Shown: positions 34,230 through 54,174, counted from the stretch's first letter. The stretch: 64,000 nucleotides of DNA from an uncultured Planctomycetota bacterium (GCA_963849325.1 CAWKHF010000004.1:64001-128000), one strand, 5' to 3'. The notes: generated by a model not told the origin, from the sequence alone. Translations and numbers: made by a program.

Positions 34230-34589
34230 TCATCGTCTGTCTGGCAAAACTTGCCGATAGCGGGCGGTTCGCAACTGGTCGGCGGCGAGAAAGCCCTGAA
34301 CGTACTCGGCGTCGGTTGAGGACTCCGGCTCTTGGGTAAACCCGTCCAGAAAGCCGCTCACCCACTGCGCATCAACACCCAGGGTGGTCGCTACATCGTG
34401 CCGCCAATCGCCAGATGCGGCAACGTCCACGAGTACCGTTTCCAGCGGATGGTAGGTTTTCCCATCACCCAGCGTGTACACACCGTCCACCACCCGCAGG
34501 TTGCCAGTGGGCACGGGCGACACATGCAGGCCGAGCCGCAGCGCCAACCAGCAGCCCTCGGTGACTGTTACCAGTGGGTCCAGGTCCAT
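34230..34589 (-). CDS. Hypothetical protein
   Basis: GGAGG RBS; protein-like. Confidence 0.65.
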   Translation of the reverse strand: MDLDPLVTVTEGCWLALRLGLHVSPVPTGNLRVVDGVYTLGDGKTYHPLETVLVDVAASGDWRHDVATTLGVDAQWVSGFLDGFTQEPESSTDAEYVQGFLAADQLRTARYRQVLPDRR

Positions 34590-34689
34590 GTTCGCCTCCG
34601 AGGAAGGAGTACAACGTCGAAAAGCTACGGCGTTGTACGCCGCTTCCCTGGCCGTCTCCCCAGGCGAGGGGAGTCGCTGGCGGCGTCAA

Positions 34690-36156
34690 TCAGCGGATGA
34701 AGTACCGCATCGCCTCCGGCCTTTCCAGGGCGAGCTTCTTGAGGCCAGCGCCGAGCTTGCACAGCGCCTCGTGGTAGTCGCTGGAGAGATGATCGCCGCT
34801 GTATTCGTGCCCGAATTCGTGGATCAGCAGACGGTCCACGTCCTCGCTCGCCCCCTGCTCGAACCACTTGTGGCCGAGGCGCAGGAGGTTGAAGTCCAGC
34901 CGCCCGGACCCGTAGCAGGCGGCGAAGTTGTTCGTTGTGTGGACCACGGAGACGGTCAGCGACACCTGTATCAACTCCCTGGCGAGGAAGACGGCGTAGC
35001 CCGCAATGAGCTTCATGCCCTCGGTCCACTTCTCTTCGTGGATGATCGTGACGCCCTCGGCGTTCGGGTCGTCGCTGTACGGCTTCGCCGTGGGGCAAAG
35101 CTGGCCCGCAGGTAGGACCGCACCGGCACGCTTCACATTCGCCCACTCGCCCTTCGACAGTCCCACGACGATGGTGCCGCCCTGGGACTGAAATCTTTTC
35201 ATCGCCTCGATGTCGCTCGGATCGGGGGCGGCTACCTTCTCCTCGAACCGTAGGCGGACGAGATGCTTGATCGCCTCGTCGGAGCAGCGCTGGTCAGAAC
35301 CGGCGAGCTTGCACCAGGCAGCGGTGGCCTCTTCCTCGGTGGCCAGGAGGTCATGGGCTGCATTCAGCACTGCCACTCGCACGGCCTGGAGAAAGCTGGG
35401 CTTCACATTATCTCGATCTCGGTTTAGCGGGCACTTCTGGCCGATGTTGACGTGCCACCTGTCGGCGGTTTCCACGACTGGCAGCCCCATTTCGTACAGG
35501 CCCGGTGTCTCGCCCGGCAGCGCCTCGAAGATGGCCACCTGGGTCTTCCGCACCCGTGGGCGCATCACGCCTTCCTCGTCGGCCACCAGCGTCTCCAGGC
35601 TCGTCTCGAAGGTGCGGAGCGGCTTGCGGGCCAGGAGCCGGTCGCCGTTGAACGTCACGGCGATGCCTTCCCGCAACAGCAATGACCGGAGGTAATCGGC
35701 CACCTGCGGGTATTCCTCCCTGGTCAGCCGGATGCAGCCCTGGAACACGGACCCCCGCTCCCGCTTCTGCCGGGGCTTCTCGATGCGGCCCTCGGCAGGG
35801 TCGAAGACGACCGTGCCCTTTGTGGTACTGATGCTGGCGCTTTCACAAACGGCCAGGACCATCTTTTCACCAAGATTGAACTGCCCACGCTGCTCCGGGT
35901 TGCCCCGCTTGTAGGACTCGGCGTACAGCGTGTAGGCGTGGCTCAAATCCCTGAACCCTTCCGGGGCGTCGTCCTCGACCGTCAGATCGGCCAGCGGTCG
36001 GCCAGGCACCAGGGCCAGGCTGACGGCGATCTGCGTGACGCCCGCTTCGTCCAGGGCGTTCTGGACCAGTTCCCCGATCAATCTGCCCTTGCCATGCTCC
36101 TCGGCCTGCTTGCCCAGGCCCGCCTTGCTCACGTCGAACCACTGCTGCTCGCTCAT
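34690..36156 (-). CDS. GHKL-family ATPase with C-terminal zincin-like HExxH
   Basis: ELVQNALD (N box), VEDDAPEG, RGQFNLG, GSVF; LLIHEFGH; AGGAG RBS. Confidence 0.8.
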   Translation of the reverse strand: MSEQQWFDVSKAGLGKQAEEHGKGRLIGELVQNALDEAGVTQIAVSLALVPGRPLADLTVEDDAPEGFRDLSHAYTLYAESYKRGNPEQRGQFNLGEKMVLAVCESASISTTKGTVVFDPAEGRIEKPRQKRERGSVFQGCIRLTREEYPQVADYLRSLLLREGIAVTFNGDRLLARKPLRTFETSLETLVADEEGVMRPRVRKTQVAIFEALPGETPGLYEMGLPVVETADRWHVNIGQKCPLNRDRDNVKPSFLQAVRVAVLNAAHDLLATEEEATAAWCKLAGSDQRCSDEAIKHLVRLRFEEKVAAPDPSDIEAMKRFQSQGGTIVVGLSKGEWANVKRAGAVLPAGQLCPTAKPYSDDPNAEGVTIIHEEKWTEGMKLIAGYAVFLARELIQVSLTVSVVHTTNNFAACYGSGRLDFNLLRLGHKWFEQGASEDVDRLLIHEFGHEYSGDHLSSDYHEALCKLGAGLKKLALERPEAMRYFIR

Positions 36157-36157
36157 G

Positions 36158-36358
36158 CTACTCCTCCTCGAACTTGCCTTCTCTCCAGCACCGCCGGACA
36201 GCGCTCACGGGATCAAGCGACAGGTCCGGGACGAACAATGTCTTGATCTTGCCGTCCCTGGTGATGATGCGGACGCCGAGGCCGTTCTCCAGCTTGACGA
36301 CCTCGGCGTTGATGCCCACGTCCCATCCCTGGCCGTTTGGCCACGGCCTTGCCCACAT
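36158..36358 (-). CDS. Small hypothetical protein
   Basis: GGAGGA RBS; abuts the ATPase start. Confidence 0.6.
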   Translation of the reverse strand: MWARPWPNGQGWDVGINAEVVKLENGLGVRIITRDGKIKTLFVPDLSLDPVSAVRRCWREGKFEEE

Positions 36359-36779
36359 GCGATCCTCCCCGCCCTTGTCTGCTTCCGGCGCTTACGCTGT
36401 GGCCCGTCCAGCGCCTTGCATCCCTCCTTGAAGCCCTTATTCATCGGAATCCTCCAGACTGCGATGCCAGAAGCAGGTTTTCTTGCCAGGCCGGGGCGCT
36501 TGCTGCATTGCACCCAAACACCGCCCATGTATCGGGACTGACCCGAACCCGTATAGACCCGGACTCTTGCTCGGCACTTGCTGCTGTCGAAATGCTTCGT
36601 CAGCAGGGTTTGTGAAGCCATCGCCTTCCGAAGCTTGTACTCATGTTTTTTCCGTTCGTCAGCCATCATTCCGCCTGACGAAGAGTACCAGCCAGCAAGA
36701 CCAAGTTCCCAAGCCTTGGAAGTCACGGCTTTCTGTCAATGCCGGGGATGAACAGGCAGTGCTTGGGTAGCCCGCCGAG

Positions 36780-37259
36780 CTATATCTTCTCGTCCTCCTC
36801 GTCATCCTCCTCGTCGCTATCCAACATGGATTCGCCCACGAAGGTAAACGTGCTGGGGTCTTCCCCTTCGAGAAACAACTCGAAATCGTCGCAGCGGGGA
36901 GCAGCGTAGGGCCAGACCTCACGACGCCCGACCACTCGGTAAACCTCGCCGTCATACTTCACGAGATCGCCCAGGTGGAAGTCGGCGTTTTCCTGCCGGG
37001 TGTACAACGGCAAGAACGGCTTCAGCCCGAATTCGTCAATGATCTCGGCCACGGTCATGGGGCCGTCCTGCAATTCAAGCACCCGGTCCCACCATCCCAT
37101 GTTGGCGTAACATAGCGCCTGTTCGACATCCAAGCAGCTTGGTATGGCCAGCGGCCCCCGGTAATCTTCATGCAGGTGTTCCTCCAGGGCGCTGATGCAG
37201 GTCCACTCGCCCTCAAGGACGGCCTTGGCCAGCCACTTCGCACTTCGTCGCTTCACCAT
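36780..37259 (-). CDS. Hypothetical acidic protein
   Basis: GGAG RBS; acidic tail. Confidence 0.65.
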   Translation of the reverse strand: MVKRRSAKWLAKAVLEGEWTCISALEEHLHEDYRGPLAIPSCLDVEQALCYANMGWWDRVLELQDGPMTVAEIIDEFGLKPFLPLYTRQENADFHLGDLVKYDGEVYRVVGRREVWPYAAPRCDDFELFLEGEDPSTFTFVGESMLDSDEEDDEEDEKI

Positions 37260-37295
37260 GATTGATCTCCCTGTGTTTGAGTTTGTGAAAGGGTT

Positions 37296-37523
37296 TCAGT
37301 CCATCCTGTCGATGAACATGAAGTTGGAGCAGGGCAGCGCACGCAGAACCCCTTCCTTCACTTCAACGTCAGCGACCTCGATGTAGCGGTCGTGGCGGTA
37401 GAGGACGTAGCACCGCACCGTCGCCGGGCACTGGACACCAGCCCGAATGCCGATGCGGGTGCTGACCCCGCCCTGTTCGATGACGACCTTCGCATCGGCC
37501 CGAAACTCGATCAGGTGCTTCAT
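37296..37523 (-). CDS. Small hypothetical protein
   Basis: MKHLIEF...; follows upstream stop by a few nt. Confidence 0.6.
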   Translation of the reverse strand: MKHLIEFRADAKVVIEQGGVSTRIGIRAGVQCPATVRCYVLYRHDRYIEVADVEVKEGVLRALPCSNFMFIDRMD

Positions 37524-37527
37524 GGCA

Positions 37528-37887
37528 TCATCCCTTCTGTTCTGCCTGGTCGTCGCCCTGAAACTGCTCTTCGGACGGACGCCCGACCTCCAGCACTTCG
37601 ATCTCGACGTGCCCGGCTTCGTCATACGGGGGCCGCTTGACCCGGAGCAGGACGTGCCCGGCGTTCTGGCCGAACAGCACTCGCTCGACCACGTTCATCA
37701 CGTCCACCAGCTTGGCACCGCCGAAGCTCATGCCGGGCCGGATGCCGGGCCGGGTGAATTCGGCAATCATCTCCTCCGGCACTCCAGCCTCTCGGAGCAG
37801 CTTCTCTTTGGCCTTGCGGCCCTCTTCGTCCAGGCTGAACAGTGTCTCGAAGAAGTTCCTGTGCATGGCGTCGAAAATGTCGCTCAT
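37528..37887 (-). CDS. Hypothetical protein
   Basis: AGGAG upstream; protein-like. Confidence 0.6.
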   Translation of the reverse strand: MSDIFDAMHRNFFETLFSLDEEGRKAKEKLLREAGVPEEMIAEFTRPGIRPGMSFGGAKLVDVMNVVERVLFGQNAGHVLLRVKRPPYDEAGHVEIEVLEVGRPSEEQFQGDDQAEQKG

Positions 37888-37937
37888 GGTTACTGTCGCT
37901 CCTGCTCGTCGTGCGGTAGAAGGTCAGAAGCCGGTTG

Positions 37938-38339
37938 TCAGGCGTCCGGCTTGTCGTCGTCGCCCAGGCCCGGCGAGTAGCCGCAACCCTGGCACATGAC
38001 GGTCTTCAGGTCGCCCGCCTCGTGGGACGCCATGATGTCGCCGCATTCCGGGCAATCGTCGCCTTCGCCCGGCTCTTCCTTCTCCCGCTTGCGGACTTCA
38101 GCGAAGTACAGGTCTTCGACGTACTGCTCGGTCTGCGGGCGAAACGCCAGCCGCCTGTGACCGTATTTCTCGCACACCCCATCCACGATGGCCTCGAACC
38201 AGTCGTCGCACGGCTCGACCACCTGGCTGTAGGTCATGCCAGCCAGCGCTTCCTTGACAGCCGCCTTCAGGTTCGGGATCGGCTGCTCGCCGTGAATGAT
38301 CGCTTCGGCATCGTCGCAGGTCAGCTTGTAAAGGTGCAT
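37938..38339 (-). CDS. Hypothetical protein with C-terminal zinc ribbon
   Basis: GGAGGA RBS; CPECG...CQGCG. Confidence 0.7.
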   Translation of the reverse strand: MHLYKLTCDDAEAIIHGEQPIPNLKAAVKEALAGMTYSQVVEPCDDWFEAIVDGVCEKYGHRRLAFRPQTEQYVEDLYFAEVRKREKEEPGEGDDCPECGDIMASHEAGDLKTVMCQGCGYSPGLGDDDKPDA

Positions 38340-38379
38340 GGTTCCTCCTGCCCGTTGTGCTGCGCCAGTTGGTCGAGGG

Positions 38380-38670
38380 TTAGCTGTCCTTGTTCTTGAC
38401 CTTGAAGCGGCCCTTGTTGGCCTCCAGGTAGGCACGGGCAGCGGTAATCTGCTCGTCGCTGAGCAGGGCCACGGCGCACTCGTAAGGCATGGAAACCGGG
38501 AAGCGCAGGCCGTCGAAGTAGATAGACAGCCAGCCGCTCTTCTCGGCCACGGCGAAGCGGGGCGGCTTGCGGTTGGCCTCGGCCATCAGCCGCATCATCT
38601 CGTCGGCGCTGATCTTCCCGTCCCGGAACTGCTGGGTAATCTCTTCCTTGGTCAACTTCTTGTCTGCCAT
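38380..38670 (-). CDS. Small hypothetical protein
   Basis: Directly downstream of motif copy 38711. Confidence 0.7.
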   Translation of the reverse strand: MADKKLTKEEITQQFRDGKISADEMMRLMAEANRKPPRFAVAEKSGWLSIYFDGLRFPVSMPYECAVALLSDEQITAARAYLEANKGRFKVKNKDS

Positions 38671-38710
38671 AAGACCCTCAAGGAGTGGTGATTGTTCTTC
38701 CCTCTATCAC

Positions 38711-38735
38711 TGCACACCAGAAGCGAGAGCGTTCA
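38711..38735 (-). promoter_or_regulatory. Conserved upstream motif copy 1 (TGAACG-N14-GTGCA)
   Basis: + strand TGCAC accagaagcgagag CGTTCA GGATTT. Confidence 0.85.
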
Positions 38736-38740
38736 GGATT

Positions 38741-39154
38741 TCACTTGCGGTCGGGCAACTCGTAGGAACCGGGCAGGCGGTAGCGGGTCAAGCCCTTCAC
38801 CTGGACGGTTTCCAGGGCAGCCTCGATCTCGTCAAGCTGCTCGTCGGTGTAGCCGTCATTATCCTCGGCCATCTGCAAGAGGGTTCGCAGGTCATCCTTG
38901 CTGACGCCCAGCGGGTCACGCAAACGCTCAAGAGTCATCGCAAAGCCTTCCTCGCAAACAGGCCGCTTGCCTTCACCGGGATATGGGTCAGCACCCAGGG
39001 CCGTCAGCAACTCGGCAAACGCCTCAGCCTGGCCGTTCAGGTGGCCTTCCGTCCAAACGTCATCCACCTTCTGCGCCTCGCCCTGCTGTTCCTGGTCCTT
39101 CTCGACCTCAGCGAGCCGCTTGAACAACAGAGCCTTCAATTCATCGTTGGTCAT
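38741..39154 (-). CDS. Hypothetical acidic protein
   Basis: Lies between motif copies 1 and 2. Confidence 0.7.
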   Translation of the reverse strand: MTNDELKALLFKRLAEVEKDQEQQGEAQKVDDVWTEGHLNGQAEAFAELLTALGADPYPGEGKRPVCEEGFAMTLERLRDPLGVSKDDLRTLLQMAEDNDGYTDEQLDEIEAALETVQVKGLTRYRLPGSYELPDRK

Positions 39155-39192
39155 GGCCAAAACCCCCAGCAGTTACGTCTCCTCTCTATCAC

Positions 39193-39217
39193 TGCACGTC
39201 AAGGAAGAAGGCGTTCA
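39193..39217 (-). promoter_or_regulatory. Conserved upstream motif copy 2
   Basis: TGCAC gtcaaggaagaagg CGTTCA GGATT. Confidence 0.85.
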
Positions 39218-39421
39218 GGATTCTTCATTCACCTGCTTGCGGACGATCTTGCGGATGACGTGCGCCAGTCCCGTGCGGTCAGGGTGGCCCCTCGGCAGCC
39301 GGTGGGCGAAGACGAGGGCGAGACGCATCGTGAAGTCCAGATGCCGCCACGCCCACGCATAGCGCTTCGTTCGCCTGACCGTGCGGGCCTCGATCCGTGT
39401 CTTCCTCTTTGTTCGTGCCAT
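39215..39421 (-). CDS. Small basic hypothetical protein
   Basis: Stop codon is the TGA of motif copy 2. Confidence 0.55.
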   Translation of the reverse strand: MARTKRKTRIEARTVRRTKRYAWAWRHLDFTMRLALVFAHRLPRGHPDRTGLAHVIRKIVRKQVNEES

Positions 39422-39460
39422 GAGAGCGTCCAGAAGTAGTGATTTTCTCCCTCACTGATC

Positions 39461-39484
39461 TGCACGTCAGAGGGAGGGCGTTCA
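39461..39484 (-). promoter_or_regulatory. Conserved upstream motif copy 3 (N13 spacer)
   Basis: TGCAC gtcagagggaggg CGTTCA GGATT. Confidence 0.8.
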
Positions 39485-39535
39485 GGATTGTGGCCAGGCA
39501 AGAACGTCCCGGCTGGTCAGGCCATGCCCGCTCGC

Positions 39536-39793
39536 CTAGCCGAGAAAGTCCGACAACTGGAATTCCTCAATGGCCTGGGCGACTGTCATTTCCCGGTCGT
39601 CGTCCACGGGCAAGAGGGTGTCCCAGCGGCCCAGGTTGGCGAAGCCGATGATAAGCTCCAGGGCCAGCATGACCTTTTCGTTGACTGGCCAGATGCCGAT
39701 AAACTTGAAGTGCCTGCGAACTGCCGTGTGAAGGGGTAGCACGCCTGCCTTCCACGCTTCGGCCAGTTCTTCGGACGTGAGCTTTCTCTTCAT
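39536..39793 (-). CDS. Small hypothetical protein
   Basis: Tightly packed in minus-strand run. Confidence 0.65.
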   Translation of the reverse strand: MKRKLTSEELAEAWKAGVLPLHTAVRRHFKFIGIWPVNEKVMLALELIIGFANLGRWDTLLPVDDDREMTVAQAIEEFQLSDFLG

Positions 39794-39796
39794 GGA

Positions 39797-40093
39797 TCAA
39801 TACTCGTCAGGGAGCAAGATTGTGGTCGCCGCTCGGTGGCCATTGTCGTCTGCGGCCTCGGTGATGACCCACAGCTTCACGCCCTTCAAGGTCCGGTAGG
39901 CGGACAGAATGCGGTCGCCGTGGATCAGCGCCTCGTCGTTCAACTGCTGGTCCTCCTCGTTGACCTCGCCGTAGTCGCCGCTGGCATGGCGAGCGATGAA
40001 GAACTCGGCGGTCTGGCCGCTCGCCTCCATCGCCTCCAGAGCGCCAGGGGTGGCCGCAAGCCGCCCCAAGGGGAACTTCGCCGCAAGGCGCAT
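39797..40093 (-). CDS. Conserved plasmid/ICE-associated small protein
   Basis: FPLGRLAATPGA...RHASGDYG...NDEAL..G.RILSAY...WVITEA...TTILLPDEY. Confidence 0.8.
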   Translation of the reverse strand: MRLAAKFPLGRLAATPGALEAMEASGQTAEFFIARHASGDYGEVNEEDQQLNDEALIHGDRILSAYRTLKGVKLWVITEAADDNGHRAATTILLPDEY

Positions 40094-40103
40094 CGCTCAG
40101 CCC

Positions 40104-40325
40104 TCAATCAAGGAAGGTCACAAGGTCGCCGTCATACACCACGCTGCGCCCGACAAGTTCCGCCGCACTGCACTCCTCGCCCTCAAGCAAGTGCTGGAAC
40201 GCCCGATGACACATCGGCACCGGGATCACCCGCCCATCCTCTGCGTCGAGAAAGACGAGGACGAGGCTGCCGTAATCCCGCAGGTCAGCGATAGTGCCGG
40301 TGATTGCCTGGATCATCTCCTTCAC
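40104..40325 (-). CDS. Small hypothetical protein
   Basis: Overlaps upstream stop. Confidence 0.6.
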   Translation of the reverse strand: MKEMIQAITGTIADLRDYGSLVLVFLDAEDGRVIPVPMCHRAFQHLLEGEECSAAELVGRSVVYDGDLVTFLD

Positions 40326-40795
40326 CGGCCTTCGGGGAATAGGTCATCGACGCCGTTCCATAGTCGGGCTTTCTCGGCCAATGCCTCCGGGTCACGGCAC
40401 TTCCAATAGCCGCCGCCGTCCTTCACTTCGACCTCGGCAAGCCCCGCCTGCTGGATGCCATCGAGCAGGGCAATCATCGCCAGGTGGCAGCGGAGGAAGT
40501 TCTCCAGACCACCATGTTCGGGACGGCTTGCGGGCTGCGTGCAGCAAGTGAACGACCACTGCCAGCCCTCCACCGCCGGGAGCTTGCAGAACCCGAAGGC
40601 AGCAGGCTCGCAACCGTTGCCGAGCCAGATCGGGAAGCAGACCAGCGGGTGGGGCCGCACGATCTCGACCACCGGCCCCACCCGCTGAAAAGACAGTCCC
40701 AGGGCCAGCCGCCGCATTTCCTCGACCACCTTGCGCACCGCCTCGGTGTCGGACAGCTTGGTGGCCAGAGCGTAGCGGATCGAAAGTCCCATCAT
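40322..40795 (-). CDS. Hypothetical protein
   Basis: GGAG RBS; GLSIRY...GCE...WSFTCCTQ...H...LLD...V.D.GGYW. Confidence 0.7.
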   Translation of the reverse strand: MMGLSIRYALATKLSDTEAVRKVVEEMRRLALGLSFQRVGPVVEIVRPHPLVCFPIWLGNGCEPAAFGFCKLPAVEGWQWSFTCCTQPASRPEHGGLENFLRCHLAMIALLDGIQQAGLAEVEVKDGGGYWKCRDPEALAEKARLWNGVDDLFPEGR

Positions 40796-40899
40796 CGCAG
40801 GCCAAGCTCCCTTTCCAGCTTGTCAAGTTCCCGTTCGAGCAGGACCGCCCGCTCCCGGCTTTTCCGGCCTGGCGGCGAGAACGAGTCAGGCCCTCGATT

Positions 40900-41151
40900 T
40901 CACCGCCCGTCCGCAACGAAGTTGAAGTAGAAGCGGGGCGTGTGCTGGAACTCCAGCGACCCCTTCACCCCGTCCGCCTTCCGCCGGACCACCACGAGCG
41001 GGGCCAGGAAGCCGATGACCTCGAAATCCTGGGCAAGCTGCTGGGTGTCCCACACCTGGCCATGCTGCGCTTCCAGGGCCTCCCGGCTGCCGGGTTCTGT
41101 GTTGATCTCGGCCAGCCGCTCACGGCGGGCCGCTTCGGTCGGGTCGCTCAT
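40900..41151 (-). CDS. Small phage/plasmid-type hypothetical protein
   Basis: GGGAG RBS; WDTQQL..DFEV.GF.AP.VVVRRK.DG..GSLEFQH.PRFYF. Confidence 0.75.
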   Translation of the reverse strand: MSDPTEAARRERLAEINTEPGSREALEAQHGQVWDTQQLAQDFEVIGFLAPLVVVRRKADGVKGSLEFQHTPRFYFNFVADGR

Positions 41152-41167
41152 CGCACTCCCCTTCAAT

Positions 41168-41455
41168 TCAAGCCGAACGTCGGCCTTCCTTGCGGTTGTT
41201 GGCCTCGATCTTCCGGCGGGCATCCTCCGAGTTCGCCGCCCTGTTCCGCTGCGGGTCCAGACCCAGGACACGCCCGACGACCGCCTCGACCAGCTTGCTG
41301 ATCGTCCAGTATTCCGAGCGGGTCAACGGACGCTGCCGCAGCACGTCCATGCGCTGCCGGATGGCCTCGCACCAGGGGTCGTCGCCGGTCAGAAGACCGT
41401 GAAACTCAAGGGTCTGCCGCAGACCGGAAAAAGCCACGGCACGGGTGTAGCGCAT
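41168..41455 (-). CDS. Hypothetical protein
   Basis: GGAGGA RBS. Confidence 0.6.
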   Translation of the reverse strand: MRYTRAVAFSGLRQTLEFHGLLTGDDPWCEAIRQRMDVLRQRPLTRSEYWTISKLVEAVVGRVLGLDPQRNRAANSEDARRKIEANNRKEGRRSA

Positions 41456-41494
41456 CGGTCAGTTCCTCCAAATGGTTGTGTTGCTTTCTCGCCT

Positions 41495-42116
41495 TTACCT
41501 CTGGACTACCACGGTCAACATCAGGCCGAGGGCCTGAAAGCGCCTCCACGATTTTTTCCCGTGGTGCCCAGCCGCCTCGGTCGTCTCGGTTCTCGATGAA
41601 CTCGTCCAGGCAGTGGTCGCTGAACCAGCTATGAACCTCGGCCTCCCATGCTTCCGGCAAGTTCTTTTCCCGCCACATCTCGCTGCGGTAGTTGTCCAGC
41701 GTCTCCAGGTACTCCCTTTCGGAATAATCGCTCTCGTCCAGAATCGGGTAGTTTTCCAGGGCGTCCTTGATCCGGCAGAACTCCTCGAAAGCCGGGGTGA
41801 TCGTGCCATCGGCCTTGAAAACCCTGATCGAGAACCCGTCGATGTAGCCGACTGCCCAATGGCTGTGCCGCTCGAACACGAGATCGGGGTCGCCGCCCTC
41901 GCTGAACGGTCGGAGCCGGTCGTTGATCGCCTGCTCGTTGGACTGCTCCAAAAGTCCGGCGTCCCTGCTGCTCGTGTACCAGACGCACCAGCGGTCGGCG
42001 TCTTCGAGGTCGTAGCCCCGGTGCCAGGCGAAGCAGTCGAAGTCTCGCCAGTTCCCGGCCAGCGCCTTCCCAGCCGCCTCCACGTCAGTCCAGTCGATTA
42101 CCTGTGTGGTTGCCAT
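41495..42116 (-). CDS. Phage/plasmid-type hypothetical protein (frameshift near 41535)
   Basis: RDAGLLEQSN...HWAVGYID...LENYPILDESDYSERE. Confidence 0.7.
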
Positions 42117-42133
42117 CGCTCGCCTTTCCTCTT

Positions 42134-42565
42134 TCACCCTGCGTACTTGGCCTGGAGCCGGACCAGTTCCGCCCGCTCCGCAGTTTCCTGCTCGTTGGCG
42201 AGCCGTCGCTCGTACTCGCCCAGGACACCGTTCTGGTGCAGCCAACTCTGCAAGGCCCGCTCCACGTCCGAATAGGTGAAGCCGGGATCGCCCCAGCAGG
42301 GGTGGGCCAGCGTCATGCGCAGGAACCGGACCTTGCCCTCGGTGGCCGTGAAAAACTCACCGTAAAAGCCGTGCCGGTTGTAATGAGCGATGTGGCCGAA
42401 GGTCAGGGCCAGCCGCCGGTAGAACGTGTGCGGAAACTGCCGCTCGGCAAAGTCCGACTCCACGAACCGGATGAACCGCCGGGCGAACCGGGCCTTCTCC
42501 TCCGCATCTTCCCAGCGGGTCGGTGTGAACTGGTCTGCGGTGAAATCCTTGATGGTGCCGAACAT
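42134..42565 (-). CDS. Conserved hypothetical protein
   Basis: FYRRLALTFGHIAHYNRHGFY...GDPGFTYSDVERAL. Confidence 0.75.
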   Translation of the reverse strand: MFGTIKDFTADQFTPTRWEDAEEKARFARRFIRFVESDFAERQFPHTFYRRLALTFGHIAHYNRHGFYGEFFTATEGKVRFLRMTLAHPCWGDPGFTYSDVERALQSWLHQNGVLGEYERRLANEQETAERAELVRLQAKYAG

Positions 42566-42607
42566 GCAGCCCTCGGTAAGTCGTTGTTATTTCCCAACTG
42601 ACTTACC

Positions 42608-42632
42608 TGTACGCCAGGGCCGATGGCGTTCA
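42608..42632 (-). promoter_or_regulatory. Conserved upstream motif copy 4 (GTACA variant)
   Basis: TGTAC gccagggccgatgg CGTTCA GGAATT. Confidence 0.8.
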
Positions 42633-42699
42633 GGAATTCGCCCGTTTTTCACGGCTGCGATGTTCCTGTCATTGGCCAGCCGGAACCCGGATCGTCACC

Positions 42700-42936
42700 C
42701 TACAGCCCGATGGCCTTGCGCCAGTCCGCAGGAACCTTCGCCCTCGCCACCCGCTTGCACTTCGCCTTGAGGAAGTCCCTGGAAATCCCGGTCGTGCAGA
42801 CCGACCCGACCAGCCCCGCAATCGCCGTGGCCCGGCCCTCGAAGTGGTCCTTGCCGAAATGGTCCAGGTAGTAGCGGTTCGTGCTGGCGTCGATGGCGAG
42901 AAAGTCACCGTTGCTTTCCTGAAAGAAGACAATCAT
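42700..42936 (-). CDS. Small hypothetical protein
   Basis: GGGGA RBS; protein-like. Confidence 0.6.
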   Translation of the reverse strand: MIVFFQESNGDFLAIDASTNRYYLDHFGKDHFEGRATAIAGLVGSVCTTGISRDFLKAKCKRVARAKVPADWRKAIGL

Positions 42937-43248
42937 GCGGCATCCCCTAACTACGGCCCAGGTAGAAAACCTTCCTCACGCCTCCTCAGCCTCGTTGGTC
43001 AAAAAGAGGGCGGGCCTTGATTACGGTTCGGGGCCGGGCCTTACGCTTGCTCAGCAGCACCGTTGCCCTCCTGCACAAGCACCCGCCCCGCCTCCCCGGT
43101 GGTGCCAGAGGAGCAGGAGTACCCAATGGTCCCTCCCGCCAGCCCGGTCGATACCCCAGGGAAGTGTCTCTGTGTAAGCGGAAACGTGGCCGACCCCGGA
43201 CCATCCCCCACCCCCGCCCCGCTTGATCGCCCATGTCGGGGCAAACGA

Positions 43249-44190: not shown

Positions 44191-44218
44191 CCCAGGCCCT
44201 TGCGGGCCACGCTCCTAC

Positions 44219-44243
44219 TGCACGCCAGACGGCTAGGCGTTCA
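44219..44243 (-). promoter_or_regulatory. Conserved upstream motif copy 5
   Basis: TGCAC gccagacggctagg CGTTCA GAAAAA. Confidence 0.85.
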
Positions 44244-44256
44244 GAAAAACCTGCGG

Positions 44257-45755: not shown

Positions 45756-45784
45756 GAGGTAATTTCTTGACCCACGCCCTGTCT

Positions 45785-45809
45785 TGCACTCGATGCCGAT
45801 AGGCGTTCA
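45785..45809 (-). promoter_or_regulatory. Conserved upstream motif copy 6
   Basis: TGCAC tcgatgccgatagg CGTTCA GAAAAAT. Confidence 0.85.
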
Positions 45810-45823
45810 GAAAAATCCGAGCT

Positions 45824-46102
45824 TCACGCCTTCAGGCGAACGGAAACGTAGCAGTGGCAGTCCTGAAACTCTTCCGGCACACAAGGACGGCGAGGCAGCC
45901 GCTCTCTGCGCAACTTGGCATTCGAGTCCACGTCCCAGCCGGACATGGCAGCGGTTTCCAACGCATCGTCCAGTGCCTCGTCGGGGTTGTTGCCGATGCC
46001 GGTGAAGACAGCGGTGTAGCCCGTGCCGGACACGCCGCAGCCCTGGAAGTGCTGCTCGTGTTCGATGCCGTGAACAACGATCTCGTAGTCGGTTGGCTTC
46101 AT
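45824..46102 (-). CDS. Small hypothetical protein
   Basis: MKPTDYEIVVHGIEHEQHFQGCG...; ATG 9 nt after motif copy 7. Confidence 0.7.
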   Translation of the reverse strand: MKPTDYEIVVHGIEHEQHFQGCGVSGTGYTAVFTGIGNNPDEALDDALETAAMSGWDVDSNAKLRRERLPRRPCVPEEFQDCHCYVSVRLKA

Positions 46103-46111
46103 GGACTGATC

Positions 46112-46136
46112 TGCACACGAAGCCGGAAAGCGTTCA
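46112..46136 (-). promoter_or_regulatory. Conserved upstream motif copy 7
   Basis: TGCAC acgaagccggaaag CGTTCA GGAAAT. Confidence 0.85.
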
Positions 46137-46322
46137 GGAAATGGCAAGAAGAATCTGCAAGTCTCAGTCGCATGACACCGCTGAAAGTGCCGTTTCCGCC
46201 CGGTCTGTGAGACGGGTCGGACGGTATTTATCAATCAGGGGCCGTCACTGCCCGCCGCTTGCCGCTGGCGGTGAGAAACTTCGTTGAGACTCCCTTCGTC
46301 CGGCAAATCACCAACAAAATCC

Positions 46323-46347
46323 TGAACGGCCTGCTCGCTGGCGTGCA
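46323..46347 (+). promoter_or_regulatory. Conserved upstream motif copy 8 (divergent from copy 7)
   Basis: AAAATCC TGAACG gcctgctcgctggc GTGCA. Confidence 0.85.
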
Positions 46348-46390
46348 GAAATGGAGGAGGGCTGTCACCTTCTCCGAGAAGAACCGAACC

Positions 46391-46600: not shown

Positions 46601-46810
46601 TCGAGCGAGTGGTTGTCGAAACGGACGACGCCGACGAGCAGACGCTTGCGGCGGCGGTGCTGGAGAAGCGTGGTTGCACCGTCACCGAGACAAGCGACGG
46701 AACCTTGCCGTGCTGGTGCCGGATAGCCGGGATGCCGAAGAGCAAGTCACCGAGGCGCTAAACGATGCCGGGGTAGTCCGCTTCGTCTACCGGCTGGAAG
46801 AGGAAAATCC

Positions 46811-46835
46811 TGAACGGCCTCTCCTCTGACGTGCA
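46811..46835 (+). promoter_or_regulatory. Conserved upstream motif copy 9
   Basis: AAAATCC TGAACG gcctctcctctgac GTGCA. Confidence 0.85.
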
Positions 46836-46858
46836 AGAGAGGCAGGAGGAATCGAACC

Positions 46859-47267: not shown

Positions 47268-47311
47268 GCGAAGGCAACTGGCCTCAGCACTATTCTTGGA
47301 GGTTTTGATCC

Positions 47312-47626
47312 ATGATTCTGCGAGACGACAACAACGGAGTTGAGATCACCCTGGAATACGACGAGGACGGCTACCCCCTCGTCAACATCAGCCTGGGCGG
47401 GGGCTTCCAGGGCGACAACGACCGGCCCGCCGTCGAGGTCGTGCTGGACGGGGTAATGATCCACGATATGTTCGATGACGAGGACAAGCGCTGGGCTGAG
47501 GGACATTGTGCCCTGTGCGGCGAGCCGATCAAGCCGGGCGACAAGACCGACGAAGGCGAGTACGGCACGGTTCACCACAACTGCCCGGACTTTCAGGGCG
47601 ACGAAGAGGACGAGCCGGACGCCTGA
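47312..47626 (+). CDS. Acidic hypothetical protein with CxxC...HxxC
   Basis: GGAGG RBS; CALCGE...HHNC. Confidence 0.7.
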   Translation: MILRDDNNGVEITLEYDEDGYPLVNISLGGGFQGDNDRPAVEVVLDGVMIHDMFDDEDKRWAEGHCALCGEPIKPGDKTDEGEYGTVHHNCPDFQGDEEDEPDA

Positions 47627-48243: not shown

Positions 48244-48251
48244 TCGACCTG

Positions 48252-49199: not shown

Positions 49200-49240
49200 C
49201 TGAGTTCTCCATGCGGGGTCGTTTTCTTCAACGCTTGTTC

Positions 49241-49265
49241 TGCACGCCAGTAGGCGAAGCGTTCA
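49241..49265 (-). promoter_or_regulatory. Conserved upstream motif copy 10
   Basis: TGCAC gccagtaggcgaag CGTTCA AAAT. Confidence 0.85.
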
Positions 49266-49330
49266 AAATAATGCAGCGCATTTCCTGGCGGTGAGGCAAG
49301 TCGCTGAAGCCCTCTGTTTCGGAATAATTC

Positions 49331-49355
49331 TGAACGGCTGTGCCGTTGACGTGCA
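49331..49355 (+). promoter_or_regulatory. Conserved upstream motif copy 11 (divergent from copy 10)
   Basis: ATAATTC TGAACG gctgtgccgttgac GTGCA. Confidence 0.85.
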
Positions 49356-49363
49356 GAAGGAGC

Positions 49364-50383: not shown

Positions 50384-50391
50384 GAAAATCC

Positions 50392-50416
50392 TGAACGCTC
50401 CGCACCTTCGGGTGCA
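50392..50416 (+). promoter_or_regulatory. Conserved upstream motif copy 12
   Basis: AAAATCC TGAACG ctccgcaccttcgg GTGCA. Confidence 0.85.
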
Positions 50417-50441
50417 GTAGAGGCGGAAGGAAGATGGCATC

Positions 50442-50636: not shown

Positions 50637-50665
50637 GGGGAAACTACCTTGCCATAGCAATTTTC

Positions 50666-50690
50666 TGAACGCATCCCCGCATGGCGTGCA
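50666..50690 (+). promoter_or_regulatory. Conserved upstream motif copy 13
   Basis: AATTTTC TGAACG catccccgcatggc GTGCA. Confidence 0.85.
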
Positions 50691-50765
50691 TCACCTATAT
50701 TGGCCCCGCAAGGCCATGCGCCGAAGTTGAGCGCAGGCCGGAGCCTGTTCCGAAAGGAGGATCGT

Positions 50766-51107
50766 ATGACCAAGGTTCAGATCAAGACGGACGTTCAGCG
50801 CACTCACCGCCGATGGATCAAGAGTCACCCGAAGGCCACGCTGAACGACCTGAAGGAGTATCTCGAAGGGGTGCTGGATGAAGTCTTGACCTTCGACCAG
50901 GAGGCAACGATTGCCGACTACCAGGATGAGTTGAGCGAGGATGCGCTCGAATACCTCAGCGATTGGGGCGACCTTGCCGATCCCGTCATGTGTGATGACG
51001 AACCCGCAACTTTCGAGTACCGGGAGGGAAATCTGGAGGAGGATATTCAGAACGTGGAAGAGGCCATCGAGACGTTCGGTGGGTCGTTTCGGTTGCGGAC
51101 TCGGTAA
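50766..51107 (+). CDS. Highly acidic small protein
   Basis: AAGGAGG RBS; D/E-rich. Confidence 0.75.
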   Translation: MTKVQIKTDVQRTHRRWIKSHPKATLNDLKEYLEGVLDEVLTFDQEATIADYQDELSEDALEYLSDWGDLADPVMCDDEPATFEYREGNLEEDIQNVEEAIETFGGSFRLRTR

Positions 51108-51455
51108 CTCGCCAGCCACGACGATTAGGCCGACCAGCCGTTGCGGTCCCTGGTGGCGATGAGGACGTGAGCGCCCCGAAACTCCACCTGAATGCCTCGT
51201 CAACGAGGAACTGCCCGGCGTGGTCGGTGACGATTCGTGGAAAACATGAACGACTCGCCAGCAGGCGTGCAGGCATCGTATGACGTTGCCGCAGTACATT
51301 CGCTGGAAGGGCCTTTCCTGACGCTGCTCTTTGGTAAACGAGCGCCAAGTGCGGCTCGCCACCGTTGAACCCGGCCAGAACCGAATCTGCCTCATGGGTG
51401 CCCACACCTTCGAGGCGCTGGTGTCGAGCGGGGAAATCGTGGAGGAGTATCGAGG

Positions 51456-51893: not shown

Positions 51894-51947
51894 ACCACCC
51901 TTGACAGAGGTTTGTCCTTCAAGAAGACCCATCAACGAGGAAACAGC

Positions 51948-52781
51948 ATGGACTTGGCATTACTTCGCAAAAAGTTCGAGCGCATGGGTGCCCGTTTGCG
52001 GCTCCGGGAGCTTCTGCCGGGCCGACACCCCGGATCGGCCACGATCATCGAGAGTGGCATCGCCCGCCTGAACGTCGTGAAGGACGACCAGGGCGAGGTC
52101 TTCGAGATCGAGGCCACCCGCAAGCAGCCGCCGGAAATCTCGGTCATCGACGTTCAGGGCGCTGACCGCCACCTTCTCCTCCTGATGCGCAACGCCGAAG
52201 GCCAGAAGAGTAAGTTCCTTTGTGGCCACGACGAGCGCCACTGGTTCATCGCCGCCATCCCCGAACTGGCCCCGGTCGGCAACGTCCAGCAGGCCAAGGA
52301 AGCCTTGAAGCCGCCGGAGGTCCAGGCACGTCAGGTTGGCATCAGGGCCAAGGAGCGCAGCCGCCGGAAGAACGCTGCTTATGTCCGCCAGGGGGAGTGG
52401 TTCTTCGTGCCCGCAGGGATCGAGGAGCCGGACTCGCTCCGAGTTCTGCGGGACGAGCCGCTGGTCCGGGGCCGAGGCAAGCCGCATATCGCTGAATTCT
52501 GCTACCGTGAGGGCGGCGAGACGGTGTACGTTTGCAGCAAGTACCCCAACGGCGTGGACGGTATCGAGTACGCCCGCATCCGCAAGCTGGAGCGGGAGAC
52601 GAAGCCAGCAGACAGGACATCCGGCTGGCGGGTCATGCGGCGGGAGGCCGAGGTTTACGTCCGTGGCCGGGTGCGACACGCCGATCACCGCACGATTGAC
52701 CTGGGCAGGCAGTGGCACCGGGTTCTCCTGAACATGGAACGAAATGCCAGGGCCATGCGGCACGTCGCCTTTCTGGACTGA
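51948..52781 (+). CDS. Conserved hypothetical protein
   Basis: GAGG RBS; KFLCGHDERHWF...RQGEWFF...GKPH...RH.DH. Confidence 0.8.
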   Translation: MDLALLRKKFERMGARLRLRELLPGRHPGSATIIESGIARLNVVKDDQGEVFEIEATRKQPPEISVIDVQGADRHLLLLMRNAEGQKSKFLCGHDERHWFIAAIPELAPVGNVQQAKEALKPPEVQARQVGIRAKERSRRKNAAYVRQGEWFFVPAGIEEPDSLRVLRDEPLVRGRGKPHIAEFCYREGGETVYVCSKYPNGVDGIEYARIRKLERETKPADRTSGWRVMRREAEVYVRGRVRHADHRTIDLGRQWHRVLLNMERNARAMRHVAFLD

Positions 52782-52984
52782 CGGGCAAGCAGCGGAGGGC
52801 GGAGGACATGAGAGCCAAACAGCCTCGACCTCCTGGCGAGCTTCGAGCAGGAGGACCGGGCCAGCAGGTGACGGGCTGCGGCGCTCCCCCGCTGCCTGCG
52901 AGCGTATGACCTGCTGCCAGGCGCTCGGCTACGGGGCAGAGGCAAACCTCACCAAGAGACATCCAGAATTGGAATACCACCGGG

Positions 52985-53827
52985 CTATTCCGGTCGGCTG
53001 CTGTTGATGATCTTCACCGCCGCCTCCTTTATCCTCTTGAGCCGTTCCTCCGGGGTGTCAGAAATACCCAACTTCACCATGCTGACGATGGGAAGAGGGG
53101 GAAAAACCTTGAAGATAGCCTTGATCTCTTCGACCCCATCGGCGTAATCCGCCACACGAGCAATCATGTCCTCGTTGACCCTGACCTGGGGTTCCGTCAA
53201 CAGCACCAGCTTGCGCTCGTCAGGGGGCAGGGCGTTCACAAATTCCATCAACTTCGCTCCCACTGCCTTCGCTTCGGGCGTTGCCTGCTTGTAGTCCGTT
53301 TCCTCGTAATGGCCGAAGAACAACTCGTGGAAGGGCCGGAGGGATTTCAGAGGCGTCACGTCAACTTCGTTGGTAACGAAGGTTTCGGCTTTTTCCTTCG
53401 GCAAGCCGGATTCGGTGAGCGACCGAACGGCAGCCTGTGTAACCGTTTCGCCCTCGACTGGTGCGGACAAACGAATGCTGCTCTTGGTAAAGCGCTGCTC
53501 GACCTGGACCAAGGCTTGCATATCCGGCTGGCCATGTTGAGCCGATGTCAAGGTGAGGTTGTTCGGCTTGGTCTTCAGAAGACTCTCGCACCACAGGTCA
53601 AAGCAAGCACGTTCCAACTCGGCTCTGCTGGTGCGTACCCGCTCGTCAACAATGTCTTTGACGACCTTCGCAGCCACATCGCGCTGGAAAGCCTCCGTCA
53701 AATCACCCAGCGGCGGCGAAACGGGCTGCCCGCCTGTGGCCGTGGCCGGAGTAGTGCCGAAGTCGCCAGACGAGGGCAGGCCAATGCTACGACGAGTCGC
53801 CATTCCGTCACTCCTTGCGCCAGTCAC
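52985..53827 (-). CDS. Hypothetical protein
   Basis: Long ORF opposite to its neighbours; start uncertain (about 53803). Confidence 0.65.
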   Translation of the reverse strand: MTGARSDGMATRRSIGLPSSGDFGTTPATATGGQPVSPPLGDLTEAFQRDVAAKVVKDIVDERVRTSRAELERACFDLWCESLLKTKPNNLTLTSAQHGQPDMQALVQVEQRFTKSSIRLSAPVEGETVTQAAVRSLTESGLPKEKAETFVTNEVDVTPLKSLRPFHELFFGHYEETDYKQATPEAKAVGAKLMEFVNALPPDERKLVLLTEPQVRVNEDMIARVADYADGVEEIKAIFKVFPPLPIVSMVKLGISDTPEERLKRIKEAAVKIINSSRPE

Positions 53828-53899
53828 CAGAGATCAGGCCGGGCAAAGAGGTAACGAAGCTTGTAACCCACCGCAAGCTCAAAAACGAAAGCGGCTTGT

Positions 53900-54174
53900 T
53901 ACCGGGAAGGTGGGAAACCGTTTACGTCTCGTCCCGGTATCCGCAGGGTGTGGACGGCATCGAGTTCGCCCGCCTTCAGAAGCTCGACCGGCAGAACACG
54001 GCTGCTGAGCGGATTTGGGATTGGCGGGTCAGGAAGCGGGAGGCCGTGGTGTACGGCAGGGGGAAGGTTTCCCACTCCAACCATCGCACAATCGTCCTTC
54101 GTGAATGGTGCAGGGTGCTTCTGAACGAAGAAAGACGGTCCACGGCGATGGGCAAGGTCGTTTTCCTCGATTGA
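53900..54174 (+). pseudogene. 3' remnant of a second copy of the 51948..52781 gene
   Basis: ETVYV...YP.GVDGIE.AR...WRV..REA.VY.RG.V.H..HRTI...RVLLN.ER...AM..V.FLD. Confidence 0.8.

Follow-up and report, generated by a model that had tools for sequence, protein, structure and literature searches.

Layout and genes of the array

We analyzed a window of 64,000 nucleotides (nt), the whole stretch GCA_963849325.1 CAWKHF010000004.1:64001-128000 from an uncultured Planctomycetota bacterium. The window corresponds to G000:C4:64001-128000, where G000 is the analyzed assembly and C-numbers are contigs; positions are those of the window unless a contig is given. A preliminary description, made from the sequence alone, had singled out positions 34230 to 54174 as an array of about 40 small genes resembling a leading region or anti-defence island. 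The whole window belongs to a mobile island, about 78 kb long, in the chromosome of a member of the Gemmataceae, and the 20-kb array is the central block of this island. The features of the locus are listed in Table 1.

The assembly comprises 8.16 Mb with 65% G+C in 14 contigs; it is of the metagenome type, 84.7% complete, and its contigs end in copies of insertion sequences (IS). Planctomycete-specific families in the flanks (PSCyt1/2, PSD1, DUF1501 and DUF1580) assign it to the Planctomycetes, and close homologues named 'Gemmataceae bacterium' assign it to the family Gemmataceae. Since raw lists of open reading frames (ORFs) are useless at such a G+C content (203 ORFs of at least 50 amino acids (aa) within 22 kb), genes were called by codon log-odds trained on long ORFs from two other contigs. 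This call, which was done twice, gave 87 genes in the window and 33 in the array, the latter with a median of 119 aa. The dense packing of small genes thus holds, and the count of 40 was slightly too high. The small-gene character reaches far past the array, from 60 kb to 140 kb of contig C4.

The strand layout agrees with that first reported. The minus strand carries all 22 genes between 34230 and 46102 and three of those from 46674 to 53803; the other eight of this second part are on the plus strand. A ribosome-binding site (RBS) of the GGAG/GAGG/AGGA type lies within 18 nt of the start in 25 of the 33 genes, in line with the strong RBSs noted before. A counterpart in the island of a congener, G002, was found for 26 of the 33 genes, two of these matches being weak or paralogous. 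The ratio of nonsynonymous to synonymous substitutions (dN/dS) is 0.10-0.56, compared with 0.72, 1.03, 1.09 and 2.37 in four overlapping off-frame control ORFs. The array genes are real and under purifying selection.

Window proteins were scanned with Pfam (all 87), PHROGs (56 of these) and NCBIfam (49 of these). All families named in the preliminary description were recovered, namely DUF932, ParB, a PAPS-reductase-like enzyme, two GHKL ATPases, the 'ATPGA...RHASGDYG' protein and CxxC zinc-ribbon-like proteins (37938 and 47312; genes are designated by their left coordinate). PHROG matches were obtained for 11 of the 33 array proteins, including DUF932, the PAPS-reductase-like enzyme, ParB, DUF7417, DUF5419, the second GHKL ATPase and an acidic protein of 236 aa.

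A 44-nt motif confined to the array

The array genes share an upstream motif, as had been proposed. It is 44 nt long in all and consists of an A/T-rich tract, CTGAACG, 13 nt and CGTGCAG; an RBS follows within about 5-25 nt. The motif was found via a repeat search and then with a regular-expression scan and a position weight matrix (PWM) over the 8.16-Mb genome. It occurs in 14 copies, all of them in the 12.6-kb stretch from 38.7 to 51.3 kb and none elsewhere in the genome. Every copy is oriented toward its downstream gene. Divergent pairs are present at 46.1/46.3 kb and at 49.27/49.33 kb; the former is central, and the copies diverge from it.

The PWM found 13 sites with 30.6-51.2 bits, all in C4:102.7-115.2 kb, while the next best site genome-wide reached 18.2. 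Twelve of these 13 are training sites and that at 42632 is independent; the fourteenth copy, which has a spacer one base shorter, comes from the regular expression. The orthologous block of G002 contains seven copies. The pattern had 10 matches in G000 (two for a reversed-pattern control) and at most five in each of 150 other genomes of the family, where the control gave up to five. With these genomes at control level, phylogenetic profiling for the reader of the motif was abandoned. The signal is private to this island lineage, which argues that its reader is probably encoded by the element.

No sigma-70 consensus promoter was found in the 20 kb, against 2.5 expected, and the motif copies show neither a sigma-70-like site nor a T-run terminator. 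The half-sites form an imperfect inverted repeat, with agreement at 6 of 7 positions. Because conservation extends to the half-site mismatch, the A/T tract and the orientation, we favour a putative promoter, possibly combined with an operator.

An extracytoplasmic function (ECF) sigma factor gene at 55971-56591 was considered as a source of the reader and set aside. It belongs to a 5.9-kb segment (about 53.9-59.8 kb) with a Ser/Thr kinase, a GYF_2 protein and a 211-aa protein (genes at 54709-56591 and 57185-59721). This segment is absent from the G002 island, which keeps its seven motif copies. The PWM also found no motif copy upstream of the ECF sigma gene.

Strongly acidic small proteins

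Strong acidity was defined as at least 20% D+E and a net charge of -12 or lower. Six of the 26 array proteins shorter than 250 aa fall in this class, versus one of 346 on contigs C10 and C11. The orthologous block of G002 likewise contains six in 26, although the individual genes turn over. The enrichment is above chance. The four very acidic proteins pointed out before (36780, 38741, 47312 and 50766) are among the six, to which 37938 and 41406 must be added; their net charges range from -15 to -23.

The 159-aa protein with its poly-D/E tail (36780) has no family match in Pfam, PHROGs, PADLOC or NCBIfam. The ESM Atlas gave only sub-threshold matches (≤0.79) for it, including viral clusters and CbeA, which serve as leads only. 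The 47312 protein has only eight other homologues in a set of 5.8 billion proteins. Two array proteins were folded with AF2, the 236-aa acidic protein and the 98-aa protein described below. For the former (predicted local distance difference test score, pLDDT, of 77) no solved structure rose above noise, with a best Foldseek E of 0.068 and a best VIA Z of 4.2; the ESM Atlas gave no usable match.

A 33-nt inverted repeat (91% complementary) at 37930-37962 and 47602-47634 covers the 3' ends of genes 37938 and 47312, and the predicted C-termini are alike (…DDDKPDA and …EDEPDA). These two acidic CxxC genes are perhaps diverged paralogues on opposite arms of the array.

Turnover of single small genes

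Seven of the 33 array genes have no counterpart in G002: 37296, 37938, 38741, 45824, 46859, 50766 and 51456. Three of these (37938, 38741 and 50766) are among the six acidic proteins. At the same places, between its own motif copies, G002 carries different small genes, of which three are acidic. The replacements at 38.8-39.2 kb and 50.4-51.9 kb likewise lie between motif copies.

In contigs from the metagenome runs X1 and X3, position 38719 is followed, after six letters, by 39208. The joint is in register within the motif copies at 38703-38744 and 39185-39226, which means that exactly one promoter-plus-gene unit is gone. A contig from run X3 also skips 37912-38374, that is, gene 37938. Parts of 50.9-54.2 kb are without cover in some runs, from which no conclusion was drawn.

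Ends and distribution of the island

The left end of the island is marked by a 44-nt fragment of a tRNA 3' end at C4:63565-63608, 392 nt to the left of the window. Over 42 nt this fragment is 97.6% identical to an intact tRNA-Val(GAC) gene at C13:80442-80515. At the right end, about 13 kb beyond the window, there is a tyrosine recombinase with a Phage_integrase domain and a match to phrog_1 (window 75996-77759; L002:11996-13759, L002 being the sequence beyond the window). From C4:141360 the 5' part of the integrase is replaced by an IS of 1335 nt, a multi-copy element with several copies at contig ends. The missing first 19 codons directly follow the intact tRNA-Val at the end of C13 (80442-80677), and the same IS comes next; because of this IS the two island ends are found on different contigs. 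In the simplest reading the order would have been tRNA-Val, integrase, about 78 kb and the tRNA-Val 3' repeat, later broken by the IS or by an assembly join across it.

Mosaic synteny with G002 (G002:C3:3761970-3850002) extends from window position -122 to about +75.5 kb. DNA outside this range matches other places in either genome, and the flanks are unrelated. The shared island blocks are 86.4% identical over 34.9 kb, compared with 78.6% and 79.1% for chromosomal flanks. Matches of at least 1 kb occur in only two of ten congeners, and two congeners of 93% completeness have no match at all. The G002 island sits in a different chromosomal context, and the integrase at its matching end is another one, of 354 aa. 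The locus thus shows the features of a tRNA-integrated island: a recombinase at one end, the tRNA 3' end repeated directly at the opposite border, and patchy presence in changed contexts. With its plasmid and phage families in addition, the array is mobile-element DNA, as the preliminary description had supposed.

The 44-mer of the tRNA fragment recurs at several sites in related genomes. For this reason tRNA-Val may be a common attachment site in the genus.

Replication, methylation and transfer genes

From its genes the element looks integrative and self-replicating. A Streptomyces plasmid encodes an annotated bifunctional primase/polymerase to which a 676-aa protein across the window end (C4:127741-129771) is 26% identical over residues 63-460 (E 9e-7). 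Two further proteins, of 608 aa (Table 1) and 674 aa (20334-22358), are 33% identical paralogues. Their motifs DLDRHSG and NGSLHLW suggest archaeo-eukaryotic-primase-like enzymes. Neither has a family match. In PDB sequence searches the 676-aa, 608-aa and 98-aa proteins and the profiles A1 and A2 gave nothing under E 0.01. The G002 island encodes an NrS-1-polymerase-HBD plus AAA_25 protein.

A close G002 orthologue exists only for the 608-aa paralogue and not for that of 674 aa, and an IS66 transposase adjoins the 674-aa gene. The island may be a composite of two replicons.

Four DNA methyltransferases are encoded on the island, all of them outside the 20-kb array. One is the ParB_N-Dam fusion at 30520; the others, an N6_N4 enzyme, a methyltransferase recognized by PHROGs only and MT-A70, lie beyond the window.

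No structural phage or transfer genes had been noticed in the array, and the Pfam, PHROGs and NCBIfam scans of the window proteins found none. When island proteins were scanned with Pfam, PHROGs, NCBIfam and PADLOC, neither a relaxase, a coupling protein or VirB4 nor a capsid, portal, terminase, tail or lysis gene came up. Structural, packaging or lysis PHROGs were matched by none of 78 island proteins, a result to be read with the caution that planctomycete phage proteins may be too divergent for these profiles. Likewise, 49 proteins of the G002 island that were scanned gave no relaxase, coupling, VirB4, capsid, portal, terminase, tail or lysis gene in Pfam.

The preliminary description had suggested a search of the rest of the contig for relaxase, oriT (origin of transfer) or phage genes. 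The same Pfam scan that found no relaxase or coupling protein on the island detected five VirD4-like coupling proteins elsewhere in G000, as well as TrwC relaxases on C1 and C5; VirB4 and a PF03432 relaxase were found nowhere in the genome. When the island was compared with the relaxase-adjacent intergenic regions of the resident MOBF elements, the best match had an E of 0.018 over 37 nt, which is not significant. An oriT common to the island and these elements was therefore rejected, the matches being at chance level.

The resident MOBF-type elements (G000:C1:5619-33469 and C5:22818-42782) contain a TrwC relaxase, a VirD4-like coupling protein and ParB-like proteins. A SNF2 helicase of 1598 aa is encoded there as well, and paralogues of the 98-aa protein lie on either side of ArdC.

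A 98-aa family linked to ArdC

The 'ATPGA...RHASGDYG' protein belongs to a family of 4369 homologues, or 6189 clusters at 50% identity. Members are found on 174 plasmids (79 conjugative, 38 mobilisable and 57 non-mobilisable) and also in five phages. Four contexts were inspected, two of the 174 plasmids and two chromosomal elements. ArdC is the direct neighbour of the gene in three of them, namely the TrwC elements on C1 and C5 of G000 and a MOBF plasmid of Vibrio vulnificus. In the fourth, a Ralstonia plasmid, it is about 4 kb from ArdC, in an array with SSB, an N-6 methylase and KleA.

The alignment of the family (A2) contains the near-invariant residues T15, P16, H36, G42, D48, N52, R61, S64, Y66, W75 and E79. 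Tandem two-domain versions of about 200 aa also occur. The AF2 model of the 98-aa protein has a pLDDT of 96.4 and a predicted template-modelling score (pTM) of 0.88. Against solved structures nothing rose above noise (best Foldseek E 0.094, best VIA Z 4.7); RelE/ParE-like rows with Z 3-3.7 were dismissed as evidence. In BFVD two unnamed viral proteins match the fold (E 1.2e-7 and 1.7e-6) and represent relatives without a function. We consider the family a candidate new domain family linked to ArdC. The gene-family lists of Samuel et al. (PMC11541004) may already include it, or DUF932.

Other array genes and the surroundings

Homologues of the first GHKL ATPase occur with 42-46% identity on three plasmids and more weakly on three more, and a paralogue lies at C3:63404-64473. 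The plasmid arrays in question contain methylases, dUTPase and helicases. The second GHKL ATPase is a single 496-aa ORF in G002. It is read as two ORFs in G000 because one base is missing near 44798; the contigs of all four runs compared have an extra C behind this position. Either this is a true frameshift or it is a homopolymer assembly error in G000. The protein has no relative in IMG/VR, and a plasmid search with it, the 608-aa and the 236-aa proteins gave no match.

For DUF932, 181 relatives were found on IMG/VR contigs. In the 80 DUF932 loci that were compared with the island, at most one further gene was in common. We found no paper that joins DUF932 with a leading region, and none of 13 papers that mention DUF932 has a title about its function. 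The PP-loop enzyme has weak BrxP/SspD/DndC matches (PADLOC; DndC in NCBIfam), which are the sole PADLOC match in the array.

Further islands with paralogues of array genes are located at G000:C3:63404-70151 and C12:1483125-1484752. The paralogues are identical to 58% (first GHKL ATPase), 33% (DUF932), 54-66% (DUF6930 proteins) and 55% (basic 277-aa protein).

The left 20 kb of the island includes plainly metabolic cargo according to Pfam. A phosphoesterase-family gene at 16880-18270 is broken into two overlapping ORFs, which cover positions 1-108 and 161-355 of the profile, and a DSBA-like gene (19282) and an alpha/beta-hydrolase gene (3519) are truncated, which points to decaying cargo in this part. 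A near-perfect hairpin at 24871-24951, with 29-nt arms (97% complementary) and a 23-nt loop, lies in the gap that separates 24704 from 25166; next to it there is a direct repeat of 150 nt (24176-24325 and 24971-25120). To the right of the array, 72-nt tandem repeats at 54307-54774 overlap the 3' end of the kinase gene and suggest a broken, repeat-containing C-terminus. The PD-T4-6 matches of this kinase in PADLOC were discarded, as they reflect the generic kinase domain.

Table 1. Coordinates of the array features and of selected neighbouring genes (positions in the window).
Feature	Position	Strand	Remarks
ParB_N-Dam methyltransferase fusion (orphan-methyltransferase type)	30520..31602	+	Pfam, PHROGs, PADLOC
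Left-arm block	34230..46102	-	22 co-directional genes, 37-488 aa; 18 of 22 with G002 orthologues, dN/dS 0.10-0.41
GHKL/sacsin-like ATPase no. 1, 488 aa	34690..36156	-	Pfam SACS E 1e-4, HATPase_c E 0.026; NCBIfam P_loop_sacsin
Acidic 159-aa protein, poly-D/E tail	36780..37259	-	isoelectric point (pI) 4.26, net charge -22; G002 orthologue 87% identity, dN/dS 0.41
Acidic CxxC zinc-ribbon-like protein, 133 aa, variable	37938..38339	-	net charge -16; absent in G002 (6 nt instead)
Motif copy	38703..38744	-	AAAATCCTGAACG-N14-GTGCAG type; upstream of gene 38380-38670; repeat D5
Acidic 137-aa protein, cassette between two motif copies	38741..39154	-	pI 4.38, net charge -15; other genes at this place in G002
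Motif copy	39185..39226	-	upstream of gene 38741-39154
Motif copy	39452..39494	-	spacer one base shorter; from regular expression
98-aa 'ATPGA...RHASGDYG' protein	39797..40093	-	plasmid family without Pfam model
Acidic 236-aa protein	41406..42116	-	net charge -23; 870 homologues, all unnamed, about 206 aa; phrog_4313
Motif copy	42600..42641	-	upstream of gene 42134-42565; outside training set, 32.4 bits
ParB (ParB_N + HTH_ParB), 313 aa	43249..44190	-	Pfam, PHROGs, NCBIfam; two ORFs in G002
Motif copy	44209..44249	-	upstream of ParB; repeat D13
GHKL ATPase no. 2, two overlapping ORFs (323 + 181 aa)	44257..45740 (323-aa ORF 44769-45740)	-	'EFVSNAID' N-box reading and phrog_8203
Motif copy	45775..45815	-	upstream of second GHKL gene
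Motif copy	46104..46145	-	upstream of gene 45824-46102; leftward half of central divergent pair
Motif copy	46316..46361	+	rightward half of central divergent pair; repeat D4
Motif copy	46804..46849	+	upstream of DUF7417
DUF7417 protein, 57 aa	46859..47032	+	Pfam E 2.5e-19; phrog_3908 E 2e-23; no G002 island match
Most acidic array protein, 104 aa, CxxC...HxxC	47312..47626	+	pI 4.05, net charge -23; G002 orthologue dN/dS 0.27
DUF932 / TIGR03299 'phage/plasmid-like protein', 315 aa	48252..49199	-	Pfam E 1.3e-49; TIGR03299 233 bits
Motif copy	49231..49271	-	upstream of DUF932
Motif copy	49322..49356	+	upstream of PP-loop enzyme; repeat I8
PP-loop (SGGKDS) PAPS-reductase-like enzyme, 339 aa	49364..50383	+	divergent from DUF932; phrog_424 E 1.1e-29; weak in Pfam
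Motif copy	50385..50430	+	upstream of DUF5419
DUF5419 protein, 64 aa	50442..50636	+	Pfam E 8e-9; phrog_519
Motif copy	50661..50690	+	upstream of acidic gene 50766-51107; repeat I15
Acidic 113-aa protein, variable	50766..51107	+	pI 4.27, net charge -16; no G002 island match
Motif copy	51240..51285	+	weakest, 30.6 bits; upstream of gene 51456-51893
Basic 277-aa protein with paralogues	51948..52781	+	pI 9.9; truncated copy 53815-54174
Ser/Thr kinase + ECF sigma factor	54709..56591 (ECF 55971-56591)	-	context; Pfam
608-aa protein, primase-polymerase-like by motif	60184..62010	-	paralogue of 20334-22358 (674 aa)
HTH_17 (excisionase/AlpA-like) small protein	62606..62842	-	context; Pfam

Interpretation of the array

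On balance we think it fairly probable that the 20-kb stretch is an accessory module, probably for establishment or host takeover, of an integrative element of about 78 kb, and that it is neither the leading region of a conjugative element nor a prophage. A factor supplied by the element would read the motif as promoter or operator and so switch on about 14 short transcription units together. Recombination may also take place at the motif copies, by which individual small genes would be gained, lost or swapped, each together with its promoter. The gene products (the PP-loop DndC/SspD-like enzyme, the two GHKL ATPases, ParB, DUF932, the 98-aa protein and the six acidic proteins) would act on nucleic acid or on host proteins. 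In this way they could help the element to gain a foothold in a new cell, in part by weakening host defence. From its context an anti-defence function is plausible.

Several observations weigh against this interpretation. No known anti-defence family was found among the 33 array proteins at a Pfam E ≤0.01, with a library that includes ArdA, KlcA/Antirestrict, ArdC and Ocr, nor in PHROGs, PADLOC or NCBIfam, and the two folded proteins (236 aa and 98 aa) resemble no solved structure, anti-defence structures included. The profile and Foldseek checks that the preliminary description had proposed thus gave no anti-defence match among these. Only one of the insertions or deletions runs exactly from motif to motif; the motif does not bound at least three others (37.3, 37.9 and 46.6-47.4 kb). 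The copies of the island may be decaying, because the integrase is disrupted by the IS, ParB is split in G002 and the second GHKL gene is frameshifted in G000. As an imperfect inverted repeat the motif could be an operator only; its 14-nt spacing is outside that of sigma-70 and ECF promoters, and the ECF sigma factor and the Ser/Thr kinase appear to be poor candidates for its reader. Furthermore, the ends of the island depend on a metagenome-type assembly and on a join across an IS, and the transfer route of the element does not seem to be accounted for by its genes.

A more far-reaching version is doubtful but deserves mention. In it, the array would be a promoter-cassette system on a non-viral, non-conjugative replicon, comparable to a small integron or to the promoter-early stem-loop (PeSL) regions of phages. 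The private signal would fire some 14 units together and serve as the crossover point for single counter-defence genes, with the acidic proteins and the 98-aa protein as new inhibitors of defence.

Among the alternatives, an origin from a defective prophage or a phage satellite is unlikely; the array would be its early or moron region, the structural genes being lost or unrecognisable. PHROG matches in a third of the array (11/33), the DUF932 relatives on viral contigs and an integrase at a tRNA gene are consistent with this origin, as is a motif-cassette layout like that of the PeSLs of T4-like phages (PMC2839356). Against it stand the lack of structural, packaging and lysis matches in both islands, with the reservation about divergent proteins made above, and the nearest IMG/VR loci, which have only DUF932 and one other gene in common with the array.

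It is also improbable, and ranks next, that the array is ordinary cargo or maintenance DNA without any conflict with host defence, in which ParB, GHKL and DUF932 would serve partition and replication and the acidic proteins would be regulators or chaperones of the element. The presence of ParB together with primase-polymerase-like genes, the missing anti-defence matches and the metabolic genes of the left 20 kb would fit. This view does not readily explain an acidic enrichment of 6/26 versus 1/346 that is kept in G002 despite gene turnover, the fast replacement of cassettes, the link of one family to ArdC, or four DNA methyltransferases on a single island.

The least probable alternative is a true leading region, that is, a mobilisable island with an unrecognised oriT that is moved by the resident MOBF elements, its minus-strand block entering first and being expressed early: the single strand of all 22 genes at 34.2-46.1 kb, the five coupling proteins in the genome, the orphan methyltransferases of the island and the 98-aa family, which on plasmids belongs to arrays of small genes that include ArdC, SSB and methylases beside the relaxase, and which also adjoins ArdC on the TrwC elements of G000, speak for it, but adjacency to an oriT or relaxase, a defining feature, was tested for and not found, the genome has no VirB4, the right arm (46.6-53.8 kb, eight plus and three minus) uses both strands, the proteins SSB, PsiB, ArdA and KlcA are absent from the 33 array proteins in Pfam, and the island has replication genes of its own. 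In the absence of an oriT, the transferred strand is undefined.

The observations of the preliminary description are confirmed, by statistics stronger than its author could have known, and its interpretation is half right. The leading region is not supported. As to a reservoir of anti-defence or host-takeover proteins, the array is mobile accessory DNA, co-regulated, fast-turning and rich in acidic proteins, it has one family typical of leading regions, and its 33 proteins include no known anti-defence family.

To our knowledge little has been published on the mobile elements of Planctomycetes, and one loose literature search on planctomycete islands gave nothing relevant among the ten entries listed. 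The island is a delimited element of this group; tRNA-Val is its attachment site, its replication genes are of the primase-polymerase type, and no gene known to serve transfer or virions was found on it. A 44-nt signal that is confined to 12.6 kb of an 8-Mb genome provides a handle for finding its reader. The conserved and the exchangeable acidic proteins are objects for tests, as is the 98-aa family with its more than 6000 clusters, which occurs on plasmids of many phyla together with ArdC. Should any array protein block defence, integrative replicons would join plasmid leading regions and phage early regions under the idea of anti-defence islands; should none do so, the array is an ordinary accessory region of an island.

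Comparison with known systems

Islands integrated at tRNA genes and carrying DUF932, such as those of the CP4-57 type in Escherichia coli, resemble the present one in having a tyrosine integrase, a tRNA 3' repeat at the ends, DUF932 among small genes and a patchy distribution. Unlike them, the planctomycete island is much larger, has replication genes and a private motif regulon, and gave no detectable KlcA/ArdB-, RadC- or CbtA/CbeA-type genes.

A PP-loop PAPS-reductase-like enzyme and a ParB-family protein within the same motif regulon recall the IbrA/IbrB pairs of prophages and DndC/SspD/BrxP. In contrast to IbrA/IbrB, the two genes (49364-50383, plus strand, and 43249-44190, minus strand) are 5 kb apart on opposite strands with eight called genes between them, and ParB has a partition-type helix-turn-helix domain. 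Unlike in DndC/SspD systems, there are no Dnd or Ssp partner genes here.

The six acidic proteins are similar to the DNA mimics Ocr and ArdA in their small size and strong net charge. In sequence none of the six has a Pfam match, and the one that was folded (236 aa) stays at the Foldseek and VIA values given above.

The anti-defence islands in the leading regions of conjugative plasmids and of integrative and conjugative elements (Samuel et al. 2024, Nature, PMC11541004) are also dense arrays of small, mostly unknown and largely co-directional genes. In both cases the element also encodes DNA methyltransferases, orphan or fused to ParB, and small proteins of acidic character; the 98-aa family, which stands beside ArdC in such regions, is shared as well. 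In contrast to those regions, the array has no match to oriT, relaxase, coupling protein, SSB, PsiB, ArdA, KlcA or anti-CRISPR, half of it uses both strands, and the element is equipped with primase-polymerase-like genes and with an integrase located at a tRNA gene. The 44-nt motif is by its size not a hairpin promoter of the Frpo type, for which no search was made.

The cassette layout leads to another comparison. PeSL cassettes of T4-type phages were reportedly treated by Comeau et al. in 2014. Hyperplastic regions with such cassettes are described by Arbiol et al. (2010, PMC2839356); the host element of the present array differs, being a chromosomal integrative island of a planctomycete and not a lytic myovirus. 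The planctomycete motif also differs from the PeSL of that source in that it is not sigma-70-like and has no stem-loop with a T-run terminator, and its role as a promoter is putative. The likeness lies in a short regulatory motif that recurs in front of many small ORFs, non-essential and of unknown function. It lies also in close relatives that differ by insertion, deletion or replacement of single ORFs, of which at least one in the present array is in register from motif to motif.

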